Part shown: in pieces, positions 34 to 19,905 of the stretch
Position numbering within the stretch: the first letter of the stretch is position 1
Layout of the letters: each line of letters starts with the position of its first letter
DNA from: an uncultured virus (IMG/VR IMGVR_UViG_3300044451_000218)
Taxonomy: Duplodnaviria; Heunggongvirae; Uroviricota; Caudoviricetes
Reading direction: 5' to 3' (one strand)
IMG/VR virus record: IMGVR_UViG_3300044451_000218
DNA length: 20,000 bases
Position numbers and translations under genes: made by a program
Notes under the pieces: generated by a model
Seen by the model: the letters and a program-made list of their open reading frames with translations, nothing else
Databases searched by the model: none
What the model was told of the DNA's origin: nothing

Positions 34-525
34 ATGGGCCTCATCCGTCGCGGCGCGTTCTGCAACGAATCCACGCTGTTCCAGCGGGTCTGTGCGCCTC
101 GAAAGACTTCCGTCTTCTGCTTCGGCGGCGGGGGTTCTGGCCTCTCCAAAGAATCGCAGGAAATGATCGACAAGTATTTCGGGTGGGAGTACATGGGCGA
201 GGCACAGTTCGAGTTCGGCAAAGCCGCCGAGTGCCTCGCGTTCATGTTCGAGAACCGTGACAAACTCGTCACCTGCGAGAACAACGGCTACTTCTTCCTC
301 GTTCGCGAGGACGTGAAGGACCAAGCCTTCGCACAGTTCGCGGCGGTTGAGAAGAAGGGCGGCGGTCACGGCCGCAGTCTGGGGCTGAAGCGAGCCGAAA
401 CCCTCGGCTGGTTCGATTTCGAGAACGGTTACTTCGTCGGCCGCACGGCCGAGATCCGAGACGCGGTCAAGCAACTGCTCGATGAGGACGCGGAAGATGA
501 AGCCCCAAACGATCTTGCCAATTGA
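34..525 (+). CDS. hypothetical phage protein
   Basis: 163-aa ORF with GGAG RBS upstream and GC3-rich codon usage. Confidence 0.75.
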   Translation: MGLIRRGAFCNESTLFQRVCAPRKTSVFCFGGGGSGLSKESQEMIDKYFGWEYMGEAQFEFGKAAECLAFMFENRDKLVTCENNGYFFLVREDVKDQAFAQFAAVEKKGGGHGRSLGLKRAETLGWFDFENGYFVGRTAEIRDAVKQLLDEDAEDEAPNDLAN

Positions 526-1057
526 AGGCCCGATCAGGTTCAAACCGGACGCCGACAAGGGCTACAGGGAACTTGTCGGCGCACTCAGGCCGCACTACGC
601 CTCGATCAGCGGCTACGATCCGAAGACCGTAGTTCATTTGCTGGCGAGCATGTGGGCGCACCCGGCCAACGAGTACGAAGCCACGAAGCTTCTGACTGGC
701 AAGCCCGCGCAGATCTACCACCACCTTCAGCCGCCCGAAGGGGACTACAAGATCGAGGCGATGGGCGTCAGCAGCAACCTAGTGCGATTCCTACACGGTT
801 GCGACATCCTGTTTTATCGGTACGAGAAAGATAACCCGCTCGAAATCATCAGCATGTTCGCCAAAGACAGGTGCTTCCTGTCGCTCGATCCGATTTCGAC
901 CACGGATTTTGAAGCCGGGATGTTCGGTGAGTACGATTACCGGGGCGTATTCGTCGTCTACCAGTTGGGCGTCCGCGCCTTCCCCGAATGGTCCGAAGCC
1001 GTGTGGAAGTCCTTCCAGTGCGAAGTACAGCCGCACATCATTTTCTCAATGCCGTAA
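497..1057 (+). CDS. hypothetical protein
   Basis: ORF overlapping the end of the previous gene; start may be 482 or 497. Confidence 0.7.
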   Translation: MKPQTILPIEGPIRFKPDADKGYRELVGALRPHYASISGYDPKTVVHLLASMWAHPANEYEATKLLTGKPAQIYHHLQPPEGDYKIEAMGVSSNLVRFLHGCDILFYRYEKDNPLEIISMFAKDRCFLSLDPISTTDFEAGMFGEYDYRGVFVVYQLGVRAFPEWSEAVWKSFQCEVQPHIIFSMP

Positions 1058-7329: not shown

Positions 7330-8805
7330 GTGAAGAACTTCAACGTGGCAACAGATTCCTTGTTCTTTGTCGCCGAGGGCGATCAAGAAAAGCTCGTTTC
7401 TGCTCTCGACATCGAGAAGAACGGCAAGAAGTATTCACAGTTTCTTGGCTCGCCAATGCAACAGGCGACCTACATGAACGCCATCGTCGCCATCCTCAGC
7501 GATTTGAAGGCCAATGGGAACACGTCCCAATACGACATGTCCACCTTCATGCAGCAGCCCGACTTGTCAACCAAGTACAACATCTACTTCCCGTGGAAAA
7601 CGCTCGCGAAAAACGATGTGCATCGCGAGATCGGCTATTGCAGTTCACGGATTCCTGTAGGCCAAAACGAAGCGTATCGTTTTAACCCGCACCCACAAGC
7701 TTTTGAGTACGAGCTTTGCCAACGATGCTGCGCATATGGTTTTTTGGAAAACATCCTGTTTGCCCGTAGTGGTGGGCAAGGATGGAGTCCTGCTTTGGCC
7801 GGTGAAAACCCCCTGTATGTCTGGAAGACCGGGGAGAACCTCGCCGACTTCATTCAACTGAACAGCGGCCAGCCTGAAAAGGCCGGGTGGGACGTTCTGA
7901 AAACCCTCGGTACTCCAGAATCTCCCAACTTGCTAACGCGCAATCAAACATACACATACAACCCAAGACTGATGGAATGTGTGTGGAAGGCACCGCTACA
8001 ACCTTGCTTTTTGTGCGGCGACTGTGAAATGCCTCATGGCAGTGAAATGTATTCTCGTGGGATCAATACGAAGTTTACCAAAGAGTCACTTTTGAAAGGC
8101 TTTCAGAAGAAATGGCACGGGTTCAAACCGACCGAGAAGGAACATTTCTTAATTGTCCCGTGCGAAGATGATAGGAAACTTGTGCGTAAAGACGGCAAAC
8201 GCATGATCGCTACGGCAGACAACAAAACTATTGCCGAAGCCGCCTACGCTCAATTTGGTGACAAATGGATCGCAATCGGAATGATGGTTGAAAGTGTTAA
8301 GAAGTCCTCGATTTTCGAGCAGTATCTCGTGACCCCTGACACTTGCCCGCAGCGAAGGAAACAGCCCCCGCACAAAAACTTCAAGAAGAGGCTTGACGGC
8401 TCAAGGCCCAAAGTCGTTGTTCCAAAACCGATCATCTCTACAGCGGAGGTAAGCCGCGAGATGATCGCAAAGGCCGTCGCATGCCTGAGCGAGATCCCCC
8501 AAGAAAAGCTCGCAATGTTACGCAACGCCTGTTACGGCGCGAGGCATGAAAGCGATGCCGAGGTGTTGGATTTTCTGGACGGTCTTTGGCGGAAGGTTTA
8601 CCAGAAGACCCGACTGACTTTCAAGAGGGTCTTTTTTCAACTGGTTCTCGCCTACGCCTGCAACCCGCGCAGTCGCAAGAGCGGTTACCTTGCTAAACAT
8701 TTGGCTCGCAACGTTCAGCTATTGGCACAATCGCCCTGTTCTGCCGTTGTGTTCGGCGAAGTCGATTGGTACTGTGTTTTCTCAACCATGTGTGGAGTGA
8801 AGTAA
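7330..8805 (+). CDS. cas8e: Cas8e (Cse1/CasA)-like large subunit with a C-terminal Cas11 (Cse2)-like region
   Basis: N-terminal FNV.....F.V...VS..D, LCQRCCA....FARSGGQG....GENL..FIQLN and CFLCG motifs as in Cse1; first gene of the cas operon. Confidence 0.8.
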   Translation: MKNFNVATDSLFFVAEGDQEKLVSALDIEKNGKKYSQFLGSPMQQATYMNAIVAILSDLKANGNTSQYDMSTFMQQPDLSTKYNIYFPWKTLAKNDVHREIGYCSSRIPVGQNEAYRFNPHPQAFEYELCQRCCAYGFLENILFARSGGQGWSPALAGENPLYVWKTGENLADFIQLNSGQPEKAGWDVLKTLGTPESPNLLTRNQTYTYNPRLMECVWKAPLQPCFLCGDCEMPHGSEMYSRGINTKFTKESLLKGFQKKWHGFKPTEKEHFLIVPCEDDRKLVRKDGKRMIATADNKTIAEAAYAQFGDKWIAIGMMVESVKKSSIFEQYLVTPDTCPQRRKQPPHKNFKKRLDGSRPKVVVPKPIISTAEVSREMIAKAVACLSEIPQEKLAMLRNACYGARHESDAEVLDFLDGLWRKVYQKTRLTFKRVFFQLVLAYACNPRSRKSGYLAKHLARNVQLLAQSPCSAVVFGEVDWYCVFSTMCGVK

Positions 8806-8806
8806 A

Positions 8807-10318
8807 ATGGCTACGCTCAGAAATGTGTTCCTCGGCATGTCGCAAATTACGCACTACGGTGCGGGACTTCCGAATCGCGACAAGAGCGGTGTGTACAAAC
8901 ATATCCCCGTGGGCAACGTGGATCGCGGGATGGTGTCGCCACAGTGCCGCCGTCAGCACGTTCGTGAAGAGATCGTCAAGCGTATGCCGCACCTCGAACT
9001 TTCCGACCAGACGCGGCACTACCCAGACATCCTCATCCCGATGTTGACAGACACGTCCGATAAATTCGGCGGCGTCGCGTTGACCGAATCGGAAGCAAAT
9101 GTGGTCATGCAGTATTTCCGCACCCTGCTACAGAAGAAGACCCGCGAAACGAAAAACGGTCGTTCAAACGCCACCTACAAACATTGGCCGGACTCCATGC
9201 GACTGGTGGCTGCGGCATGTCGAAAAATCAAAGAGAATGGCGGGCAACAATGGTCCGACATTTCCACCCCGTCATCCACCATCGTCATCGAGAACATTCT
9301 CGCCGATCTGGGGCTTGAGAAACAGGACAAAAACGATGACGATGATGATGACAAGAAAGATCCCGAACTGGAAGCCACTCGCAACCGAATCCTCAAAGAA
9401 CTCCCCGGCCGCATGGAGGCCGCGAAGATCGGTTACGATCAAGGTAACGAATTGAAGGCACTCGTTATCGCCATCCGCGATAACGTGCCGCAAGAGCAGC
9501 CGGAACAAGCGGAGAAAATCGAGAAGCCCAACCAGAAGCCTCAAGCCGGTGGCAAGAGGGGTGCCAAGAAGACCGTCGAAACCAGCGGACTGGATGAAAT
9601 TCGCGATAATTTCAAGAAAGCCTTGCTCGCAGAGACGAGCAAAATCAAGGGCAAGAAAATGCTTCGGCTTTCTGACTGGTGTGTGCCGCCATTCGACGTA
9701 GCCCTGTTCGGCAACATGCCCAACGAGAACCTCCACCGGCAGGTTACGCCCGCCATGAACAACACGGCGGCTATCTCAGTCAACCCGTTGGCCCCGGTCA
9801 CCGTTTTCAATACCATCGTTGATACCAAACGGCCGGAATCGAACATGGTGCCGGATCAGAGCTACATGTACGACGCCGTTATGTACTCGTTCGACATGCT
9901 TGACTCCAACCAGTTGTTCCAGAACATGGAGCGAGAGGCCACGGTCGCAGAAGTCGAAGCACTGATCGCGTCGTTCATCGAGTCACTGCCCGGTGCCAAA
10001 CGCGGCACCTCGGCGATCAATTCGCCGCCGATTCTCGTATCAATCGTGCTGTCGGAGTACAACCAACTGTGTTGCGAACGCGCCTTCGTAGAGGCAATCA
10101 ATACGCAAACGGATGATGTTTCACGCATCGCCACCGAACGGCTGTACGGTTTCATGCAGAAGAACCAAGAACAGTGGGAACCTCTCGATACGTTCGTCTA
10201 CTCGGTCGATCCCGTACCAGAGAAACTCAAAGCCCGAACCTACCGCAACACGCGGAAGTTCGCGCGAGCCGTCGCCGAACGCTACGTTGAACTGCGTTGT
10301 AGCGTGACCAAGAAGTAA
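8807..10318 (+). CDS. cas7: Cas7e (Cse4/CasC) backbone subunit, enlarged
   Basis: PNRDKSG..K....G...R..VSPQC.R, DVALFGNM, AISVN, SLPGAK motifs matching Cse4. Confidence 0.88.
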   Translation: MATLRNVFLGMSQITHYGAGLPNRDKSGVYKHIPVGNVDRGMVSPQCRRQHVREEIVKRMPHLELSDQTRHYPDILIPMLTDTSDKFGGVALTESEANVVMQYFRTLLQKKTRETKNGRSNATYKHWPDSMRLVAAACRKIKENGGQQWSDISTPSSTIVIENILADLGLEKQDKNDDDDDDKKDPELEATRNRILKELPGRMEAAKIGYDQGNELKALVIAIRDNVPQEQPEQAEKIEKPNQKPQAGGKRGAKKTVETSGLDEIRDNFKKALLAETSKIKGKKMLRLSDWCVPPFDVALFGNMPNENLHRQVTPAMNNTAAISVNPLAPVTVFNTIVDTKRPESNMVPDQSYMYDAVMYSFDMLDSNQLFQNMEREATVAEVEALIASFIESLPGAKRGTSAINSPPILVSIVLSEYNQLCCERAFVEAINTQTDDVSRIATERLYGFMQKNQEQWEPLDTFVYSVDPVPEKLKARTYRNTRKFARAVAERYVELRCSVTKK

Positions 10319-10371
10319 AACGAAGACCACATTTCCCGATTTATCGGGAGTCACCAATAAAGGTCCAAGAC

Positions 10372-11430
10372 ATGAGCGTCATCAAACTGTTTTTGGCCGG
10401 CTCACGACAGTGTTACGGACTCGAAAATATCGGCCAAACCAAGCCGTGGCCGACCAAAAGCGCCGTCGCTGGCATCGTGGCAAATGCGCTCGGCCTCGAC
10501 TACAAAGACACGACCGAATTCCTCAAAGATTTCAATAAGACCAAAGTACACGTTCGCGTGGACTCTCCCGGTTCTATCTGCGAAGACTTCCAAGTCGCCA
10601 CCGGGTTTGGTGATGCAAACGGCCGCGCCCGCACAATGAAGGAAAAGGTTGCTTACGTCGATAACGGGGTCGTTAAAGAATATAACGCCCCGAAAAAAAC
10701 CATGTTTACACCCACATACCTCTGCGATGCGAGGTTCATGGTTTTTATCGAAGGCCGACGCGAGGTTCTCGAAACTTGGGTCGCCGATCTCGAACGGCCC
10801 AAACGTCCCCTTTATCTCGGACGGTCGTCATGCCTCCCAAGTGAAAACATCTTCGTGTCCCACGAGGACCGAGACATTCAGGAACTGATCGAGAACAGTG
10901 TACTCGAACTACTGCCGGGAACCAAATACGAGGGTCAAAAAACACTCAATACGATCATGGAAGTCCAGAGTGGCGGGTACTTCATCCGAGATGTCGTTCT
11001 TACGTTCAAACCGAGCCACACACACGGTTCACGAATGGTTGTTCAAAAGCCAGTGGTCGTGAAAAATGTTGTCCCGTGGCTGCAAGGCGTGGGCCTTTCC
11101 GGGCGAAGAAATCGTCCGAGTAAAAAGGCACGCGATGAACGCCTTTCATATGACAACAATCGTTGCGTCGAGTGCGGGGCAGTCAAGGACGTGCAATATC
11201 ACCACGTCACATACGAGAACTATGGGTGTGAAAAGCTCGAAGACGCCCGAACCCTCTGCGTCATTTGTCACCGCGCCTGCACGCTTCTCAACAGTCAATT
11301 CGGTCACTTTGATCCGAGGGAACTGCCAGAAGAAGATTACGAGGTCTACCGGAACGTGCGTGACCAGATCGCGGTAGAACATATGAGGATTTTGGAATCA
11401 AGAAAGCAACTGCCGAAGTTGCCCTACTGA
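10372..11430 (+). CDS. cas5: Cas5e fused to a C-terminal HNH nuclease
   Basis: PTKSAVAGIVANALG, YLCDARF, LYLGRSSCLPS (Cas5e); C-terminal CVECG...YHHVTY...TLCVICH (HNH). Confidence 0.92.
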   Translation: MSVIKLFLAGSRQCYGLENIGQTKPWPTKSAVAGIVANALGLDYKDTTEFLKDFNKTKVHVRVDSPGSICEDFQVATGFGDANGRARTMKEKVAYVDNGVVKEYNAPKKTMFTPTYLCDARFMVFIEGRREVLETWVADLERPKRPLYLGRSSCLPSENIFVSHEDRDIQELIENSVLELLPGTKYEGQKTLNTIMEVQSGGYFIRDVVLTFKPSHTHGSRMVVQKPVVVKNVVPWLQGVGLSGRRNRPSKKARDERLSYDNNRCVECGAVKDVQYHHVTYENYGCEKLEDARTLCVICHRACTLLNSQFGHFDPRELPEEDYEVYRNVRDQIAVEHMRILESRKQLPKLPY

Positions 11431-11471
11431 TTCAGCCCATTCCACTATGTCCCATTTTTTGGGAGACTCTT

Positions 11472-12086
11472 ATGTATCGATGCTTCCTGAAGGTCAAACC
11501 CAGTGCCATGATGTCCAGACTGTACGACTGGCACGGGTGGTATGGAATCATTCTCAACGGGTGGCAAGACACTAGGTTTCATCAACAGCCTCGGTCAGAA
11601 AATCGATCCATCCTGTACCGGGTCGAGAACGAACAGATTGTCGTTCAAAGTACAGAACGGCCAGATCAGCCAATCCGCGCACCAGAGATCGCCAGTTGTG
11701 TGATCGAGGAGTATAACCCGAAACCATTCGGGAAGACCAACATCGAAGTGGTCATGGCCGTTTACACGCGGGGCAAGCGGACCAAAGGCGTTGCGCCGCC
11801 CGGAGTCAGAAAGAACCCCACTGCCGGACTATACCTGCCACTCGAAAAGCGACAGTTCTTCCTCCGCAAAATGCAAGACAACGGGTTCGTCGGCGACATC
11901 ATTTCGCTATCGGTCGGCCAGACGTTTTCGTTCTCTTCACCTCACGGTCAAAGTAGAATTGAACTGCCGGTGGCAAACTTCAAAGCCACAGTGGACATCA
12001 AGGACACTAACGCCTTCCTCGACATGATGAAACGAGGCGTCAGCCGCAACAAAGATTCTGGCTGTGGACTTATCGTTCTGCGATAA
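11472..12086 (+). CDS. cas6: Cas6e crRNA-processing endoribonuclease
   Basis: ILYRVE...IVVQS..RP and C-terminal Gly-rich loop GVSRNKDSGCGL; directly upstream of the array. Confidence 0.85.
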   Translation: MYRCFLKVKPSAMMSRLYDWHGWYGIILNGWQDTRFHQQPRSENRSILYRVENEQIVVQSTERPDQPIRAPEIASCVIEEYNPKPFGKTNIEVVMAVYTRGKRTKGVAPPGVRKNPTAGLYLPLEKRQFFLRKMQDNGFVGDIISLSVGQTFSFSSPHGQSRIELPVANFKATVDIKDTNAFLDMMKRGVSRNKDSGCGLIVLR

Positions 12087-12230
12087 TACGCGAGAGCAGA
12101 GGTGTTGAACACTTCCTCTGAATTCGATCTTTGAAAACTTAGACAATTACGCCACGCGAGCTACGCACAAGGCAACCCCTCGCGTGGCGTAATTGTAGTA
12201 CCGATAATAGTTCGATTTGTGGCCATGAGC
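12087..12230 (+). promoter_or_regulatory. CRISPR leader with an 18-bp perfect inverted repeat (12143-12196)
   Basis: Non-coding stretch between cas6 and the conserved end of the array; ACAATTACGCCACGCGAG / CTCGCGTGGCGTAATTGT. Confidence 0.65.
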
Positions 12231-13125
12231 CTCAAACCCTCAATCCCATTCATTGGGAGTTGTCATCTTACCAAGCTCGATGTTCAAGTGACGCCCGCAG
12301 ACCTCAAACCCTCAATCCCATTCATTGGGAGTTGTCATAATTGCTCTTTGAGACGCAGCAACTTCGAGACTTCCGACTCAAACCCTCAATCCCATTCATT
12401 GGGAGTTGTCATGGCGAGCGGCTGCTTCGGGTGATCCAGAAGAAAGAACTCAAACCCTCAATCCCATTCATTGGGAGTTGTCATCCGATCTTCATGGGCA
12501 ACCTTCAGGAAGGCACAACCCCGCCTCAAACCCTCAATCCCATTCATTGGGAGTTGTCATCGCTCGGTGCTGGTCTGCGAGTCGGACGGTGAATGCTCAA
12601 ACCCTCAATCCCATTCATTGGGAGTTGTCATACGAAGGACGGCAAAGGGAAACTTGGCATGGTCCGGCTCAAACCCTCAATCCCATTCATTGGGAGTTGT
12701 CATCTCTGGGTTCTGGTCCGGCGGCAGCAGCTTCTTCATCAAACCCTCAATCCCATTCATTGGGAGTTGTCATCCGTACCCGACCGCTTTGGAAACAAGA
12801 ATGCCCGCCTTAATCCCTCAATCCCATTCATTGGGAGTCGTCATAGCAGCTCAGTGTCGATGGTCGCGAGTTGCGAGTCCGCTCAAGTCCCAATCCCATC
12901 TTTTGGGAGTTGTCATCTGGGAGCCGCAAGCCGATGGGTAGAAGACCAGCAATTTTTGTAACTAATCCCATTTCGTTCGGAGTCGTCATAAGACCGACAG
13001 ATGGGCAGCATGACTGGCTGCAAATTCAATCCCATTTTTTTGTTGGGAGTTGTCATGACGGGTTCGATGGCCTGGATTGCGCTGATGGCACACTTCTCAA
13101 ACTCGTCCCATTCATTGGGAGCTAC
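12231..13125 (+). CRISPR. CRISPR array 1: 13 repeats CTCAAACCCTCAATCCCATTCATTGGGAGTTGTCAT (36 nt), 12 spacers
   Basis: Identical repeats at 12231, 12303, 12377, 12449, 12525, 12596, 12668; progressively degenerate at 12738, 12809, 12882, ~12954, ~13018, 13096; first nine spacers 34-40 nt; TCCCA/TGGGA stem followed by exactly 8 nt. Confidence 0.97.
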
Positions 13126-13754
13126 CTGACTAACTCAATCACCTTCGGCGGCACCTTTTCCGAAACGTAATAGGACGGCCACCTGCTGTCCTCCGAACCA
13201 CGCCCGTCATTCTGCAACTTGTCTTCCAACACCGACCGCTTCACCTTCAACACCACCACCGGCGACGGCCGATCCGAATTGTGTTCCTCATGTTCCTCCA
13301 CCCTCTGCTTCCAGAACTTCACCCCGCCCTTCTCGGCAAAAAACACCTTGCCCGAACTGTAGTCCGAGTAGTTCGTAAACTGCTTGACTGCCGTAGGAGA
13401 CAACCCGTTCTTGCGAATCAGCGGCAACCGCGATTTCGTCGTAACGTGGTAAAGGTAATCGTCCTTACCTTCCTTCTGAATGGCCTCGCGGTCCAACCTA
13501 GCGGCCAATTTCTCGTGATCGACGTTCCTGTAACGCTTCGCCAGTTCGCGGTAAACGAACGCGGCGTAACCCTCGGACACGCCGAGCTTTTTGCCAATCT
13601 CCGCAATCGACAAACGACCCGTCGCAGCCAGTTGCTGCATCGCCCACGGCTTGATGGAAGGCTCAATCGAGGTGTACCACGCTTCCCACGCCTCCCACGG
13701 GTCGCCGGCAGAAGGCGGAACACTCATTTCTAGCCACAGTTTGAAAGTCGTCAT
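13122..13754 (-). CDS. HTH plus ADP-ribosyltransferase-fold (KptA/Tpt1-like) protein
   Basis: Start MTTFKLWLE; LSIAEIGKKLGVS HTH; LYHVT....L..I...GL.P, VFFA, VVLKV, VPPKVI ART-like motifs. Confidence 0.65.
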   Translation of the reverse strand: MTTFKLWLEMSVPPSAGDPWEAWEAWYTSIEPSIKPWAMQQLAATGRLSIAEIGKKLGVSEGYAAFVYRELAKRYRNVDHEKLAARLDREAIQKEGKDDYLYHVTTKSRLPLIRKNGLSPTAVKQFTNYSDYSSGKVFFAEKGGVKFWKQRVEEHEEHNSDRPSPVVVLKVKRSVLEDKLQNDGRGSEDSRWPSYYVSEKVPPKVIELVR

Positions 13755-13759
13755 GACCC

Positions 13760-13766
13760 TATTTAG
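13760..13766 (-). promoter_or_regulatory. T4-like late-promoter motif (TAAATA)
   Basis: Minus strand reads CCCTAAATAGGGTC-ATG immediately before the 13754 start. Confidence 0.4.
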
Positions 13767-13769
13767 GGC

Positions 13770-13798
13770 TTGACGCACATCAACAAAAAGCCTAATCT
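13770..13798 (+). promoter_or_regulatory. sigma70-like promoter
   Basis: TTGACG-17 nt-TAATCT upstream of the RBS and ATG at 13833. Confidence 0.5.
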
Positions 13799-13832
13799 GA
13801 CTTCCACACAGAACAACAAAAGGAATTCCGAC

Positions 13833-14385
13833 ATGAGCCGCTCCGTCATCTGCCGCTGCCGCCACGAAGACTGCGGGCAAGACACCTTCGTCGCACACAT
13901 TGACGACAACCGCCTGCTGCCCCGAATGCGGACGGCAACAGTCACCCGACGTACTCGGCGTCCCCAACGGCCTGTACAAGCACTACAAGGGCAACACCTA
14001 CCGCGTCACCGGCTACGGTCTGCTCACCGACCCCGAAACGCGAGTGGTTTACTACCACAACATCGAGACGCCCGACCAACTGATGGCCCGGCCGACTACA
14101 ATGTTCATCGAGAACGTCAACGGTCAGCCCCGGTTCCAATACATCGGCGGCGAAAGCCCCAACACGTTCCCCGCCCTCGTGAAAGCCGAACTGGAACGCG
14201 CCCGCAGACTGCATCCGGGCAACCAACGCTGCCTGCACGAAGCATACGGCGTTCTTCAGGAAGAAGTTGACGAGTTCTGGGATCTCGTCAAATTCAAGAA
14301 ACCCGACCCCAAGAAGGTACTGGAAGAACTGGTTCAGGTCGCTGCTATGGCACAGAGAAGTGCCGAAGATCTGGAACTCACATGA
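13833..14385 (+). CDS. zinc ribbon + DUF1653 + MazG-like fusion, with an apparent frameshift near 13900
   Basis: GLYKHYKGNTY...ARP..MF...PRF (DUF1653); HEAYGVLQEEVDEFW...EELVQVAAMA (MazG-like); the RBS-supported ATG at 13833 is out of frame with 13900-14385. Confidence 0.7.
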
Positions 14386-14549
14386 GACGACACAACACGT
14401 TGCCCGACGATGAATTCGACTACTACCCGGAAGAGAAGCCCCCGCCGAGACAACCACAGTGGCTCGGCATCGTCGCCCTCGTCGCCCTGCTCGTGATCCT
14501 TGTGTTCGTCTTACACGATTCGGCCGTCAAACTCGGACTCGTCAAATGA
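14382..14549 (+). CDS. small single-pass membrane protein (55 aa, not in ORF track)
   Basis: ATGA-coupled start; WLGIVALVALLVILVFVL hydrophobic helix. Confidence 0.65.
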   Translation: MRRHNTLPDDEFDYYPEEKPPPRQPQWLGIVALVALLVILVFVLHDSAVKLGLVK

Positions 14550-14850
14550 AAAAGGCATTCAACGTGTTCGCCCAGTTGTTCCTCGCCACAAAACACCACA
14601 CGGCAGCTACATGCCAGACTTTGAGTATCCTGATCGTTTTGTGGAGGTGAAAAGCCCGTGGACACTTGCAATTTGCAAAGGCGAGAAACCAAGTAAAAAC
14701 AACTTGTGTAGTGATGTGCAATGGCGTAAGATCCAGTACGTTAACGACCACTTCAAAACGGTTGAAGTGGTCGTACTATCCAAAGCGGAAGCCGCAAAGC
14801 TTTTCGCCAAAGCTCAAACGGGAGTCCTCCAATTCGCTACGCCAGCATAG
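14500..14850 (+). CDS. PD-(D/E)XK nuclease domain, probably N-terminally truncated
   Basis: TPHGSYMPDFEYPDRFVEVKS motif; no convincing start or RBS. Confidence 0.55.
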   Translation: MCSSYTIRPSNSDSSNEKGIQRVRPVVPRHKTPHGSYMPDFEYPDRFVEVKSPWTLAICKGEKPSKNNLCSDVQWRKIQYVNDHFKTVEVVVLSKAEAAKLFAKAQTGVLQFATPA

Positions 14851-14937
14851 TACCTCCCCGACCTCAAAACCTGCCTGCAACGCGCCGGGATCACCGAAAC
14901 CAACGTCAAACTGAAGGGTTTCCATGAAGACGGCAGC

Positions 14938-15921
14938 AGACCAATGGCTTAGGCAGGTGCAGGCAAGGTTGTATGCGATTCGCTTACGGTCTGCAAGCTA
15001 TCGGTCAAGACCAATGGCTTAGGCAGCAGTCAGCCTTGAGGACTACGAAAGAACGCATGTCTGCAAGCTATCGGTCAAGACCAATGGCTTAGGCAGATTC
15101 CGCTCATCTGGTTCCACTTGGGGTATATCGAATCTGCGAGCTATCGGTTACGACCGATAGCTCAGGCAGGAGGGTTGGCGACGGCAGGCATCGGCGCTCT
15201 GCGTGCTATTGGTTACGACCAATCGCTCAGGCAGCCGTCCGTGTCTGGGATTGCGACGACGTGCAGCATCTGCGAGCTATTGCTTACGACCAATGGCTCA
15301 GGCAGTAGCTGATGCCGAGTTCATCGGCAACCTGCGAGTTATCGGCTAAGGCCAATGACTCAGGCAGGACGACTACCTCGATCTGACGCCACTTCTGCGA
15401 GTTATCGGCTAAGGCCAATCGCTCAGGCAGAACCGCTGCCTCGTGTTGCCAATGATGACCGCGACCCTGCGTGCTATTGGTTACGACCAATCGCTCAGGC
15501 AGCCCCAGTCGAACAGGACGTTGGCGACGGCGTTCATCTGCGTGCTATTGGTTACGACCAATGGTTCAAGCAGATTCGGCAGCATTACGGATCTTTTCGA
15601 TGAACCTGCGAGCTATCGGTCAAGACCAATGGCTCAGGCAGAACTATAAGCCCGTGTCGCCTGTCTGCGAACCATCTGCCACGGCTCATGGTTCAAGCAG
15701 GTTCAAGCAGGACATCCTGCTGTTCGACTCTCTGACCGCAAACGACTGCGAGCTATCGGCTAAGGCCAATCGCTCAGGCAGTGTTGGATGTATGCGAAGT
15801 CGCCGTTGCTCGCCTGCGGGCCATCGGTTGCGACCAATGGCTCAAGCAGATCTTGAAGTTCGCGTCATTGCATTTGTTCTGATACCTGCGAGCCATCGGT
15901 TACGGCCAATGGCTCAAGCAG
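14938..15921. CRISPR. orphan CRISPR-like array 2: 14 full plus 1 partial 36-nt hairpin repeats (consensus CTGCGAGCTATCGGTTACGACCAATGGCTCAGGCAG), 14 unique spacers
   Basis: Full repeats at 14991, 15061, 15134, 15199, 15270, 15332, 15395, 15467, 15538, 15606, 15665, 15746, 15814, 15886; 3' half-repeat at 14938-14956; spacers 23-37 nt. Confidence 0.85.
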
Positions 15922-16188
15922 AAGCACTACGTCGCACTCGCCACAGGCTCGCAACCTAAACACCCCGAACACCCGTAAAACGACAACGGCCAACCCGTCA
16001 CCAGATCGTCACCACGACGCTCAAAAACCAACCCGGCATCTTCAACAGCTACCAAGAGGCCATCACAACACTCGCGCAATACGCACAACACGCTCCCCGA
16101 TTCAAACTCGGCGACCAAACCGACTACGAACTCCACCTCAAAACGTTCACCGATAACTACAACTACGACAACTGAAAGGCACACAACC

Positions 16189-16620
16189 ATGAACCGCCGC
16201 GAACTCCTCTCCCTCCCACTGCTCGCCCTCACACCCCCACAAAACCCCCTCCAAGTCCAAATGATCAACTACCAGGGACCGGGAAGACCCAACGATGTCG
16301 ATCCCAAATGGGCAGAAAGGCTCCTAGAAGGCTCTACAATCGATCTTCCGAACACGCAAACCCGCTACCTACACCAACGAAAACAAAACGTGAGCATCCA
16401 AGCCACTAACTTCCTACACGCCAACGTCTTCAACCACGTTGACGAGGTCAAAAAGAAAGCCGCCAAAGCCTTCCCACACTCCTACAAAGGCTTCTGGCAA
16501 GATCACACACACATTCACCTCCAACTGGACCAAATTGTTCACTCCATCCCGCAACCCGCCCCTACCCCGTGGAACGACGAACAGTCGGTCCACAGGGGCA
16601 ATGATGGGCAAGGCTATTAA
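16189..16620 (+). CDS. hypothetical protein with a twin-arginine-like N-terminus
   Basis: MNRRELLSLPLLAL start; GAAAGG RBS. Confidence 0.6.
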   Translation: MNRRELLSLPLLALTPPQNPLQVQMINYQGPGRPNDVDPKWAERLLEGSTIDLPNTQTRYLHQRKQNVSIQATNFLHANVFNHVDEVKKKAAKAFPHSYKGFWQDHTHIHLQLDQIVHSIPQPAPTPWNDEQSVHRGNDGQGY

Positions 16621-18069: not shown

Positions 18070-18182
18070 ACACGCGACAATAGCTCACAGGCTATATCCC
18101 CGCGCTACTATAGCCCCACGCGACAATAGCCCCAGAGCTATAGCTTCACGAGGCTATATCCTCACCGGAGCTATAGCCCCAT
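18070..18182. repeat. cluster of short imperfect repeats (CACGCGACAATAGC x2, GGCTATATCC x2, CTATAGC x3)
   Basis: Read directly from the sequence. Confidence 0.6.
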
Positions 18183-19490
18183 GCACACATACACACACCA
18201 AATACCATCCACATATACTCCCACACATCTATCACCACATTCTAATCAGCCCCGCAAAAAGTCTGTGCTAAAACATGAACAGCATACACCCTGGACCAAA
18301 CAGAACCCTGTGCAGACATAATCAGCACAAACACAAATATGTTTTACTTCGCCCAAAATGTCCGAGCCGCTGATTTCAAAGCAATCCATACACACAAATA
18401 AACATCAATGCCAACTAATAGAAACTCGCAGATCGGCGACTAATAGCACCCGAATCCTCACCAACTACTATTAGAAAGTTGTGTGCAACAGGCCGACAAC
18501 ACACCCCTTGACCCAGGTAAAGTCTGATCCACTCAAGCCAAATACCTCTGTGCAAAGGACTTCTGAACAAATCGGTGTATCTCAGATAAATTACGCTCAG
18601 GAAGGCGTCGAGAACTGATTGACTGGATTGTCTTTGTGTCGGTTGGAGGCGCTTGATCCAAGTGGTGGTTTGGTAGCGAGATGGGAGCGGAATAGAAAAT
18701 GGGCCTAGTCCGTTTGCCACCCCGCCCGCCAAAAATCCTCACGCCCAGGTGCGATAAGACATGAGGAACAAATCCCAATCAAATTCAACTTGAAGAAACG
18801 ATGTGTGCAGAATGATTTTCAAAGTGAGATAATGTGGGACAGTGGTAATACAACCCCACCGAACATGTTGAAATTCAAGACAAATAAGCATGTAATTGTT
18901 TGACTTATACCTGAATTGTGTCGAAACCATCGAGCTAAAACATGCCGGGGCAGAGTCACTCCGGGGGGTCTGTGCAAGCTGGTGAGAGTCACTTTGTGCT
19001 AGGGGAGAGGTAATCGCGCCGCGACCCCTGGATTAGCTCTGGGGGTTCTGTGCAAGGTGTTTGGCGTATAACTTTGCTGGTTCTCGGAGGAGTTAGTTGG
19101 CCTATCGGGTGAGCATGGCTTTGCCGGGGCAGAACGGTACATAAGCGTCATTATCGGACTGACTGTAGTTCTGTGCAGATGGTTCTTAGGGAGAGGGACA
19201 TATGGACAATGGATATTTCTACTGTCCATATGGCGAAAAATGACCGAACGGCGAGCATCTTGTCGGGAGAAACACGGACAAACTCAGGGGGAAACGCGAC
19301 ATTCATTTCCGCACAACAGGATCTCGCGTTCCCAGTTGTGTGCAGTGCGGTTCCCAGTTGAGTACCGAGCGGCGCGGCAGTACCTGGGGAGTACCTCCAG
19401 GCTCCCGCGTCCCGCCTGAGTACCTTTCGGCTCCCGGTCGGGGGTTCCGGGGCAGCGGCGACCGAAACTAAAGCGATCTTCAGAATGAAG

Positions 19491-19579
19491 TTTTCAAAGC
19501 GTTGTACTTTGCCTTTCGGCAAAGGTTTTTCATGGCGTTGTACCGGCGATAGTGCTATTTGTTTTTCATAGCGTTGTAC
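19491..19579 (+). repeat. three 17-bp direct repeats TTTTCAWRGCGTTGTAC at a 36-bp period
   Basis: Copies at 19491, 19527, 19563; related copies near 19921 and 19984. Confidence 0.75.
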
Positions 19580-19864: not shown

Positions 19865-19905
19865 AACAAGAACCCCGGAGAGAACCCCTCTCCGGGGTTC
19901 TTGTT
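19865..19905 (+). terminator. intrinsic terminator-like hairpin
   Basis: 18-bp perfect stem AACAAGAACCCCGGAGAG / CTCTCCGGGGTTCTTGTT, 5-nt loop. Confidence 0.7.

Follow-up and report, generated by a model that had tools for sequence, protein, structure and literature searches.

A 14-repeat array on a large phage-like element from lake water varies in sequence and keeps a 36-nt hairpin

The 20,000-nucleotide stretch of IMG/VR record IMGVR_UViG_3300044451_000218 that we analyzed, to which we refer as the window, belongs to a large phage-like element from lake water, and all coordinates given here are window positions. It carries two repeat arrays, one beside a type I-E Cascade operon (array 1) and a second one farther downstream (array 2), and our subject is array 2 and the hairpin that its repeats encode. 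Every one of its 14 full repeats is exactly 36 nucleotides (nt) long. The intervals measure, in order, 34, 34, 37, 29, 35, 26, 27, 36, 35, 32, 23, 45, 32 and 36 nt, so that direct repeats alternate with unique spacers of similar size (23-37 nt, and one of 45), which is the generic layout of a CRISPR array. The final 10 nt of repeat 11 recur inside the 45-nt interval, which without this copy would be 35 nt long, and the repeat starts are irregularly spaced, 59-81 bp apart. Open reading frames (ORFs) that cross the array score as non-coding by codon scores. A covariance model built from array 2, R1, matches only these 14 copies in the window, with 52.7-62.3 bits, and reveals no solitary copy of the repeat elsewhere in it.

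Repeats that belong to the same CRISPR array are as a rule duplicates of one another. This near-identity, the usual criterion for such repeats, is absent from array 2, whose 14 full repeats comprise 12 distinct sequences with a mean pairwise difference of 6.3. Sixteen of the 36 columns are invariant, including CTGC at positions 1-4, GCAG at positions 33-36, A10 and T11, A24 and T25, and A31, and the mean column identity is 89%. The variants are interleaved along the array, and neighboring repeats are somewhat more similar to one another than random pairs are (mean Hamming distance of 5.23 versus 6.34, P = 0.028). Several repeats are chimeric, with a 5' half of one repeat type and a 3' half of another, a pattern suggestive of recombination among repeats.

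All 11 of the repeats that we folded on the + strand form a hairpin from end to end, with free energies of -12.4 to -22.1 kcal/mol and z values of -2.0 to -6.0. The base of the hairpin is an invariant 4-bp CUGC/GCAG helix that joins positions 1-4 to positions 33-36. Above it, on the 3' side, lies a 2-nt A-R bulge at positions 31-32, which reads AG in 10 repeats and AA in four, followed by an upper stem of 11 bp (positions 5-15 with 20-30) that closes a YNNG tetraloop of the sequence TACG, CAAG, TAAG, CACG or TGCG.

We then compared the pairing within these hairpins to that of shuffled and permuted controls. Over the distinct repeats, 91.7% of 180 pair cells are paired, and this value falls to 15-40% when the partner columns are slid by 1-3 positions. 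Both sides have changed in 5 of the 15 pairs, compared to 2.1 ± 0.8 pairs in shuffled alignments (one of 500 shuffles reaches five), and the covariation score is 0.194, compared to 0.130 ± 0.016 in shuffles, none of 500 being as high; these covariation statistics rest on 12 distinct sequences from a single array. Likewise, when both arms are taken from one repeat, 192 of 210 cells are paired, compared to 185.2 ± 1.4 for random partners, and none of 5000 permutations reaches 192. When the 3' arm of one repeat is instead matched with the 5' arm of the next, 174 of 195 cells are paired, which is the random level. Since pairing within repeats exceeds the random expectation and pairing between neighbors does not, each repeat of array 2 folds on itself, and the unique sequence lies outside the stems. 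Some variation is not compensated: 18 of the 210 cells are unpaired, mostly as C12.A23 and otherwise as T.C and T.T in chimeric repeats.

These results bear on a sequence-only reading of the same DNA, which had described array 2 as an array of hairpins conserved by compensatory change. Its repeats of exactly 36 nt with invariant CTGC and GCAG ends are found in 14 of 14 full repeats, its end-to-end hairpin with a 2-nt AR bulge is found in every repeat folded, and all of the co-varying variants that it listed are present, as is the perfect stem of the repeat at 15134. That the changes are compensatory is borne out by the five double-changed pairs and by covariation above that of shuffles, but the unpaired cells show that this does not extend to all of the variation. 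The variants are interleaved, as it had stated, but with the greater likeness of neighbors noted above. Finally, the spacers are unique, but the length range of 23-37 nt that had been given for them misses the one interval of 45 nt, and they are not fully independent of each other, as described below.

Taken together, the evidence supports the conclusion that the repeats of array 2 are held by selection on the hairpin rather than on sequence. What is unusual about array 2 is that a single array contains 12 repeat versions kept by compensatory change. If a partner protein recognizes them, then these versions form a natural mutational map of what it requires, namely the base of 4 bp, the bulged A and pairing in the upper stem.

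The same heterogeneity could also mark a disused array, acquired from a host or from a different phage and then stranded, with its repeats decaying. The mean of 6.3 differences per pair, the chimeras of two repeat types, the truncated first repeat, the internal 10-nt duplication and the lack of any partner or target among our findings all agree with this explanation. Decay, however, would not keep pairing at the level observed, with its five double changes and with all 5000 permutations exceeded, nor does it account for 16 invariant columns that include both ends and the bulged A. Moreover, even the repeat that has diverged most retains its fold (-15.3 kcal/mol), and the array is unchanged between sequencing runs of 2018 and 2025. 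We therefore regard a stranded array as quite unlikely. Parts of the region 12000-16500 are present in 13 lake-water runs, which we designate by codes, from 13 studies, with at least half of the sampled words present in seven runs; one run may be the source sample, and four were aligned to the stretch. In run X1, 12747-16500 is covered without any difference by five contig pieces that overlap, and in run X8, from 2018, pieces over 14926-15076 and 15214-15420 show 0-1 differences. No gain or loss of a repeat-spacer unit was seen in the four aligned runs. At 15305, the last base of repeat 5 and an invariant G of GCAG, one X8 contig of depth 7 has a T.

Table 1. Coordinates of array 2, of the neighboring Cascade operon and array 1, and of the related array on a second IMG/VR contig.
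Feature	Position	Strand	Remarks
Array 2	14940..15921	+	One 5'-truncated and 14 full 36-nt hairpin repeats; 14 unique intervals
Truncated first repeat	14940..14956	+	Repeat positions 20-36, 17 nt; same as 3' half of repeats at 14991 and 15061
Repeat 1	14991..15026	+	A5-U30 replaces G5-C30
Repeat 2	15061..15096	+	Identical to repeat 1
Repeat 3	15134..15169	+	Perfect 15-bp stem, -22.1 kcal/mol
Repeat 4	15199..15234	+	Identical to repeat 8; U12-A23 paired; mismatches 6:29 and 9:26
Repeat 5	15270..15305	+	
Repeat 6	15332..15367	+	U8-A27 and C15-G20, both sides altered
Repeat 7	15395..15430	+	Chimera: 5' half like repeat 6, 3' half like repeat 12
Repeat 8	15467..15502	+	Identical to repeat 4
Repeat 9	15538..15573	+	5' half like repeats 4 and 8; AA bulge
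Repeat 10	15606..15641	+	
Repeat 11	15665..15700	+	Most divergent (7-13 differences); folds via A7-U28, C9-G26 and C15-G20, -15.3 kcal/mol
10-nt unit GGTTCAAGCA, x2.2	15690..15711	+	End of repeat 11 duplicated into the following interval
Repeat 12	15746..15781	+	
Repeat 13	15814..15849	+	
Repeat 14	15886..15921	+	Final repeat
Cas3-less type I-E Cascade operon	7330..12086	+	From Pfam, PADLOC, NCBIfam and solved structures; not part of array 2
Cas8e-like	7330-8805	+	Weak: PADLOC E = 0.005; best solved relatives are Cse1 chains, E = 0.13
Cas7e	8807-10318	+	Pfam E = 6e-30
Cas5e-HNH fusion	10372-11430	+	NCBIfam Cas5e over cut-off; PHROG HNH matches at residues 244-332
Cas6e	11472-12086	+	Pfam, PADLOC
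Array 1	12231..13125	+	Ten 36-nt repeats (12231-12916), 34-40-nt spacers, then three degenerate copies to ~13125
Helix-turn-helix protein	13122-13754	-	Sole likely minus-strand gene of the stretch
IMG/VR relative array	IMGVR_UViG_3300009177_000055, 284-687		Six identical 36-nt repeats, CTGCTGCGAGTTGGAACATGCTGTGGCTCATGGCAG; 36-40-nt spacers

We searched for related repeats with patterns of decreasing stringency. A two-repeat pattern in which only CTGC, AT, AT and GCAG are fixed gave a single chance match, in a coding region. A three-repeat pattern in which only CTGC...GCAG is fixed matched at least 120 stretches each in IMG/VR and in metagenome contigs. We screened 497 matches at 242 loci, and 26 entries from 19 of these loci have a repeat identity of at least 0.7 together with a spacer identity of at most 0.5. 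Among the matches listed, one is by eye a true repeat-spacer array (locus L111, on IMGVR_UViG_3300009177_000055), and the others are short-period or coding tandem repeats. Three IMG/VR loci, L021, L075 and L088, have 36-nt CTGC...GCAG units that are 96% alike and 45-nt intervals that are about 45% alike, with a period of 81 nt; each is probably a coding tandem repeat. A tighter two-repeat pattern, centered on the 3' motif shared with the L111 array, identified IMGVR_UViG_3300009177_000055 only. In 401 genomes of Planctomycetota, a phylum chosen arbitrarily, we found scattered matches in 26 genomes, at most three and on separate contigs, at about the level of the reversed-pattern control, and no array. 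A 10-kb region of the window has no match among phages. None of 4227 Rfam families, the CRISPR-DR families included, matches at gathering thresholds or at E <= 10 over 12100-16100.

The array on IMGVR_UViG_3300009177_000055 stands at the very start of its contig, so that the DNA upstream of it is cut off by the contig end. Besides the CTGC and GCAG that the pattern forces, its repeat shares GAG...CUC and GGCTCA(T)GGCAG with array 2, and its end-to-end fold forms only in the matching orientation (-11.9 kcal/mol, versus -5.4 kcal/mol on the other strand). The sequence-only reading had proposed a search with a covariance model, and model R1, which recovers the 14 copies of the window, gives six weak matches to the repeats of this array (E = 0.72 each). 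In 20 kb of the contig, the six repeats are its six best matches; the base of the hairpin aligns and the upper part differs. The IMG/VR repeat is probably a distant member of the array 2 repeat family, an assignment in which we have moderate confidence. The contig is that of a tailed phage, with genes for a RecE-like exonuclease, helicases, DnaB, methylases, terminase and portal, and there is no cas gene among its 33 ORFs scanned, a result that fits the use of a partner encoded elsewhere. A tblastn search of the window ORFs against this contig gave nothing at E <= 0.01, and its array has no match among plasmids and phages.

Single repeats of array 2 fold about equally well on both strands, with 192 paired cells on the + strand and 191 on the - strand. 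Read on the + strand, five pair positions include G.U, and one includes A.C, the counterpart of a G.U on the opposite strand. The confidently coding neighbors that were scored near the array, the Cascade genes among them, all lie on the + strand. These G.U pairs and coding neighbors, along with the fold orientation of the IMG/VR relative, lead us to favor the + strand as the one from which array 2 would be read. That the repeat is near-palindromic and folds about equally on both strands would also be expected of an element that acts as DNA, for example as palindromic protein-binding sites or cruciforms in replication, partition or recombination. However, double changes that keep pairing alter the sequence, which is unsuited to sequence-specific DNA binding, and G.T pairs are tolerated at five pair positions. 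The conserved 2-nt bulge breaks the symmetry, the irregular spacing of 59-81 bp provides no helical phasing, and the IMG/VR relative folds on one strand only. A DNA-level element is thus highly unlikely.

We also examined the unique segments between the hairpins for signs of their origin. The top three local alignment scores between spacers of array 2 are 12, 11 and 10. Likeness of this degree is rare in mononucleotide shuffles (P = 0.02, 0.000 and 0.005) and less so among random coding fragments of the window (P = 0.067, 0.013 and 0.053; 0.013 for the sum). Spacers 4 and 9 have GTTGGCGACGGC in common, the reverse complement of which reads ATG and then x-A-V-A-N, and spacer 12, in the forward direction, overlaps what follows in spacer 9, inverted relative to it and with a codon difference that is in frame. 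These similarities suggest that the spacers are pieces from related genes, taken from both strands, as adaptation would give. The reverse complement is the better coding strand in 9 of the 14 spacers, which is not a significant bias. Two of the 14 intervals end in CAT flush with the repeat, so that their reverse complement is a start codon followed by the first codons.

With respect to known systems, the repeats of type VI-B arrays, to which the sequence-only reading had likened those of array 2, are 36 nt long with paired ends, each repeat lies 3' of a spacer of roughly 30 nt, and Cas13b, with its two HEPN motifs, is encoded nearby; no HEPN-type protein is present among the window ORFs scanned. 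The hairpin base of array 2 may also resemble the Cas6f hairpin of type I-F repeats, and the CRISPR-DR families of Rfam gave no match. The closest documented layout is that of Casλ. As described in PMC12141684, the 36-nt Casλ repeat makes up the entire scaffold and has a terminal stem of 5 bp that abuts the guide, a two-adenine 3' junction and an upper stem-loop; the same source describes Casλ as encoded by huge phages and as using a ruler that trims the spacer to 16-18 nt, so that spacer length in the array matters little. Array 2 resembles it, as judged by eye from the layout, in its length of 36 nt, its terminal stem with a last pair next to the putative guide, its 2-nt purine 3' junction and its upper stem-loop, and both are found on very large phages or a phage-like element. 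By analogy, a handle of the Casλ type may be at work in array 2. The two Casλ repeats in the supplement of PMC11576732, however, begin with ATTGTTGTA and end with AACAAC, and their fold leaves three 5' bases unpaired and has a terminal stem of 5 bp and a loop rich in T/U. Array 2 has no sequence similarity to these two repeats, and in it CUGC/GCAG is flush with the ends, the upper stem is 11 bp long and the loop is a YNNG tetraloop. In addition, a Casλ example from IMG/VR has its effector one ORF from the array and spacers averaging 30 nt, whereas no RuvC ORF was found in the window. Given the absence of the sequence of these two repeats, of the U-rich loop and of a RuvC gene among the window ORFs scanned, we do not assign array 2 to Casλ.

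The interpretation that we tentatively favor, at a little below an even chance, is that array 2 functions as the guide array of a second system on this element, that its partner is encoded outside the window, by the element or by the host, and that its repeats drift under selection for the hairpin. We infer in this the transcription of the array, its strand, its guide function, and the identity and location of its partner. The array would be read from the + strand, and each 36-nt repeat would fold alone into a complete protein-binding handle composed of the 4-bp base, the invariant bulged A, the upper stem and the tetraloop. The upper stem, at 11 bp, could change only where pairing survives. 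The unique segments of 23-37 nt would serve as guides, and the partner, an effector or a processing nuclease, would be encoded beyond the 20-kb window on the very large element or in the host. Since there are no adaptation genes among the window ORFs scanned, we propose that nothing rewrites the repeats from one template, so that they would drift and recombine and those variants that keep the hairpin would persist. Uneven spacer length would be tolerable if only the repeat-proximal part of the spacer were used, as is the case with ruler-trimming effectors. Casλ, as described, lends support by analogy to such a guide array, in that a 36-nt end-to-end hairpin with a 2-nt purine 3' junction can be a complete handle. 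If the partner proves to be a compact effector like those found earlier on huge phages, then it could be of practical interest.

A number of results weigh against a working guide array. Twelve distinct repeats among 14 are unusual in such an array, and the standard deviation of spacer length, 4.2 nt compared to 1.7 nt in array 1, is wider than in most types. The equilibrium fold of the whole 1-kb transcript keeps 5 of the 14 local hairpins in its minimum-energy structure, because arms of different repeats compete, and local, co-transcriptional folding is therefore an assumption. A scan of 12000-16400 for promoters and terminators found 1 and 3 sites, respectively, numbers at or below those of shuffles, and none is suitably placed for array 2. 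Neither a cognate effector nor Cas1, Cas2 or Cas4 is found among the 33 window ORFs scanned. With regard to targets, the best match of an array 2 spacer to the window has at least 7 mismatches. The spacers, whose comparison with phage sequences had been suggested along with the sequence-only reading, have no match among phages or plasmids (the best GenBank phage alignment has E = 1, and plasmids yielded nothing), and a back-translated pattern for the gene start of spacers 4 and 9 is absent from IMG/VR. The repeat itself appears to be rare as well. A strict pattern that accepts all 14 copies in array 2 has 0 matches in IMG/VR and 0 in JGI metagenome contigs, and in genomes of 185,579 species, one genome for each, it has one chance match inside coding DNA and no array. 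Finally, the IMG/VR relative shares about 20 bases with array 2, of which four at each end are forced by the pattern, and each of its matches to model R1 is weak, at 12.7 bits and E = 0.72.

An extension of the guide-array interpretation is possible but doubtful: the CUGC-GAG...CUC-A(N)G-GCAG base may define a family of phage-carried arrays that are used in trans, with a partner outside the described Cas, Tas and Cas6 families. If this is so, then it would amount to either an RNA-guided effector of a new kind or multi-copy RNA decoys of a new class, and the repeats would be free to vary provided that both hairpin and base were retained.

Array 2 might instead act as an RNA decoy or sponge, like an anti-CRISPR RNA, with 14 hairpins that mimic a host repeat and absorb its processing nuclease or effector and with intervals that are mere filler. 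PMC11656645 reviews how mobile elements use components of CRISPR systems, and phage RNAs that mimic CRISPR repeats are documented in PMC10651486, where the Racr RNA anti-CRISPRs are described as phage-encoded, solitary, CRISPR-repeat-like units that closely match a known host repeat. Array 2 likewise consists of CRISPR-repeat-like hairpins on a phage element. A decoy would also be in keeping with the loosely held interval length (23-37 nt, standard deviation 4.2 nt), with several repeat variants side by side that could cover variants of the host repeat, and with the absence of a protospacer from the window, from GenBank phages and, for one back-translated pattern, from IMG/VR. Moreover, no matching cas gene is found among the ORFs scanned on either of the two phage contigs with this style of repeat, a point that array 2 and its IMG/VR relative have in common with phage arrays that lack cas genes and rely on a host system; array 2 differs from such arrays in its 14 units, its heterogeneous repeats and the complete Cascade of another type that adjoins it. 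On the other hand, the Racrs described are solitary, whereas array 2 has 14 tandem units with unique, spacer-sized intervals. These intervals hint at related coding sources in both orientations, and the IMG/VR relative, with six identical repeats and spacers of 36-40 nt, resembles an ordinary array. Nor did we find a host repeat to mimic in the species genomes, in Rfam or in the 401 Planctomycetota genomes. We thus consider a decoy somewhat unlikely; were it correct, RNA anti-CRISPRs would include long arrays in addition to single units.

A conserved structure with a variable sequence is also reported for TIGR-Tas, whose phage-associated tandem arrays have palindromic stems that vary yet pair (PMC12045711; bioRxiv 10.64898/2026.09.09.750476), as the stems of array 2 do. 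TIGR stems, however, enclose two 8-12-nt spacers with box C/D flanks and are adjoined by a Nop-domain Tas protein, whereas the array 2 stem closes a tetraloop and leaves the unique sequence between hairpins. We tested array 2 as a TIGR array and rejected it. None of the 33 ORFs matches Nop at E <= 0.01, a search that could miss a very divergent Tas. Intervals of 14 nt between box C/D motifs occur singly, six on the + strand and five on the - strand over 14 units, and no unit has two of them, in a test in which three of the array 2 intervals are shorter than 28 nt. The covariation supports a hairpin within the repeat and not a stem that encloses a guide, given the random level of pairing between neighbors reported above. 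More generally, array 2 could belong to a new RNA-guided system outside CRISPR-Cas, or be the precursor of multiple RNAs, with the hairpins as punctuation or handles and the unique segments as guides or antisense RNAs. The absence of a match in Rfam and of a known effector family among the ORFs scanned agrees with such a system, as do a structure conserved beyond sequence, as in TIGR stem-loop arrays, and the two intervals whose reverse complements are gene starts. In addition to the outcome for TIGR itself, it is opposed by the lack of a consistent strand bias in the intervals (9 of 14) and by the fact that an ordinary repeat-spacer array fully explains the architecture; we found no positive support for a new system and judge it unlikely.

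The term "orphan", which the sequence-only reading had applied to array 2, does not describe its surroundings, since an operon for Cas8e-like, Cas7e, Cas5e-HNH and Cas6e proteins and array 1 lie directly upstream; the Cascade is 2.8 kb upstream of array 2, and array 1 ends about 2 kb upstream. Array 2 is an orphan in the narrow sense that no protein fitting its own repeat type is present among the window ORFs scanned. The operon fits the description in PMC10910872 of a Cas5-HNH variant of type I-E Cascade. Its Cas5e-HNH protein has invariant Cys, His and Asn residues of the HNH type, and its best solved relative is a CasD chain of 388 amino acids (E = 5e-21, aligned residues 20-311). Cas1, cas2 and cas3 genes are absent from the window ORFs scanned. 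The Cas7e protein is 503 amino acids long and has family matches only in residues 247-472, which leaves about 240 N-terminal residues unexplained, and no separate Cas11 gene was seen in 7330-12086. The Cas5-HNH protein is rare: beyond the window's own copy, we found eight relatives in 5.8 billion sequences, the closest with 44% identity. It is present on six contigs, the longest of 475,914 bp, which indicates that most of the element lies outside the window. No relative was found in IMG/VR with either the single sequence or a three-sequence alignment, plasmids gave canonical Cas5e only (182 records, none covering 80%), and Cas7e has no match among phages.

Array 1 is found on the same element and strand as array 2 and also has a 36-nt repeat and spacers of variable length. 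Its repeats are nearly identical and degenerate toward the 3' end. On the + strand, the array 1 repeat consists of a short hairpin followed by 8 nt (GTTGTCAT), the 5' handle expected with a type I-E Cas6e, whereas the array 2 hairpin reaches the last base; the two repeats have no common sequence. The claims that array 2 is unrelated to array 1 and lacks an 8-nt handle thus stand. Because its hairpin ends at base 36, leaving no 8-nt handle, and because no sequence is shared, array 2 is very unlikely to serve the neighboring Cas6e and Cascade, and one element, with a rare Cas3-less Cas5-HNH Cascade beside array 2, appears to run two unrelated guide systems. The characterized Cas5-HNH system is reported in PMC10910872 with 32-nt spacers, compared to 34-40 nt in array 1. 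A long perfect inverted repeat (GACAATTACGCCACGCGAG ... CTCGCGTGGCGTAATTGT) is present at 12136-12200, between cas6e and array 1; it could be either an operon terminator or a leader element, and Rfam gave only chance miRNA matches for it.

The genes between and after the arrays include those for a DUF1653 protein, small zinc-ribbon ORFs and a methyltransferase, and none encodes a recognizable RNA-guided effector. Likewise, no match to RuvC, TnpB or Cas12 was found among the ORFs scanned, which cover 15 kb upstream and 4 kb downstream of array 2. A small fragment near the arrays has a weak Pfam RE_endonuc match (E = 0.0008) and, by eye, a PD-(D/E)xK-like motif, and one protein near the arrays has, also by eye, an apparent signal peptide. 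For the minus-strand helix-turn-helix protein, the best score in Protein Atlas is 0.88, to a viral hypothetical cluster, which is no more than a lead, and another lead, at 0.81, is to a cluster 16% of whose members have PARP; from its sequence, the C-terminal half of this protein looks like an ADP-ribosyltransferase.

The last 2 kb of the window contain further repeated sequences. Tandem units of 16 nt and 46 nt built on CTATAGCCCC occupy 18071-18181. On the + strand, 8 of the 11 copies of TGTGCAR in the window fall within 1 kb, at 18309-19345, in apparently non-coding DNA, with a whole-window expectation of 5.5 ± 2.2; this cluster may be a repeated promoter or operator motif. TTCATAGCGTTGTACCT occurs at 19565, 19921 and 19984, and the variant TTCATGGCGTTGTACC occurs at 19529. 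An exact 53-nt duplicate is present at 19885 and 19948, with its copies 63 nt apart, and runs past the window end; each copy starts with the 3' arm of a G+C-rich hairpin.

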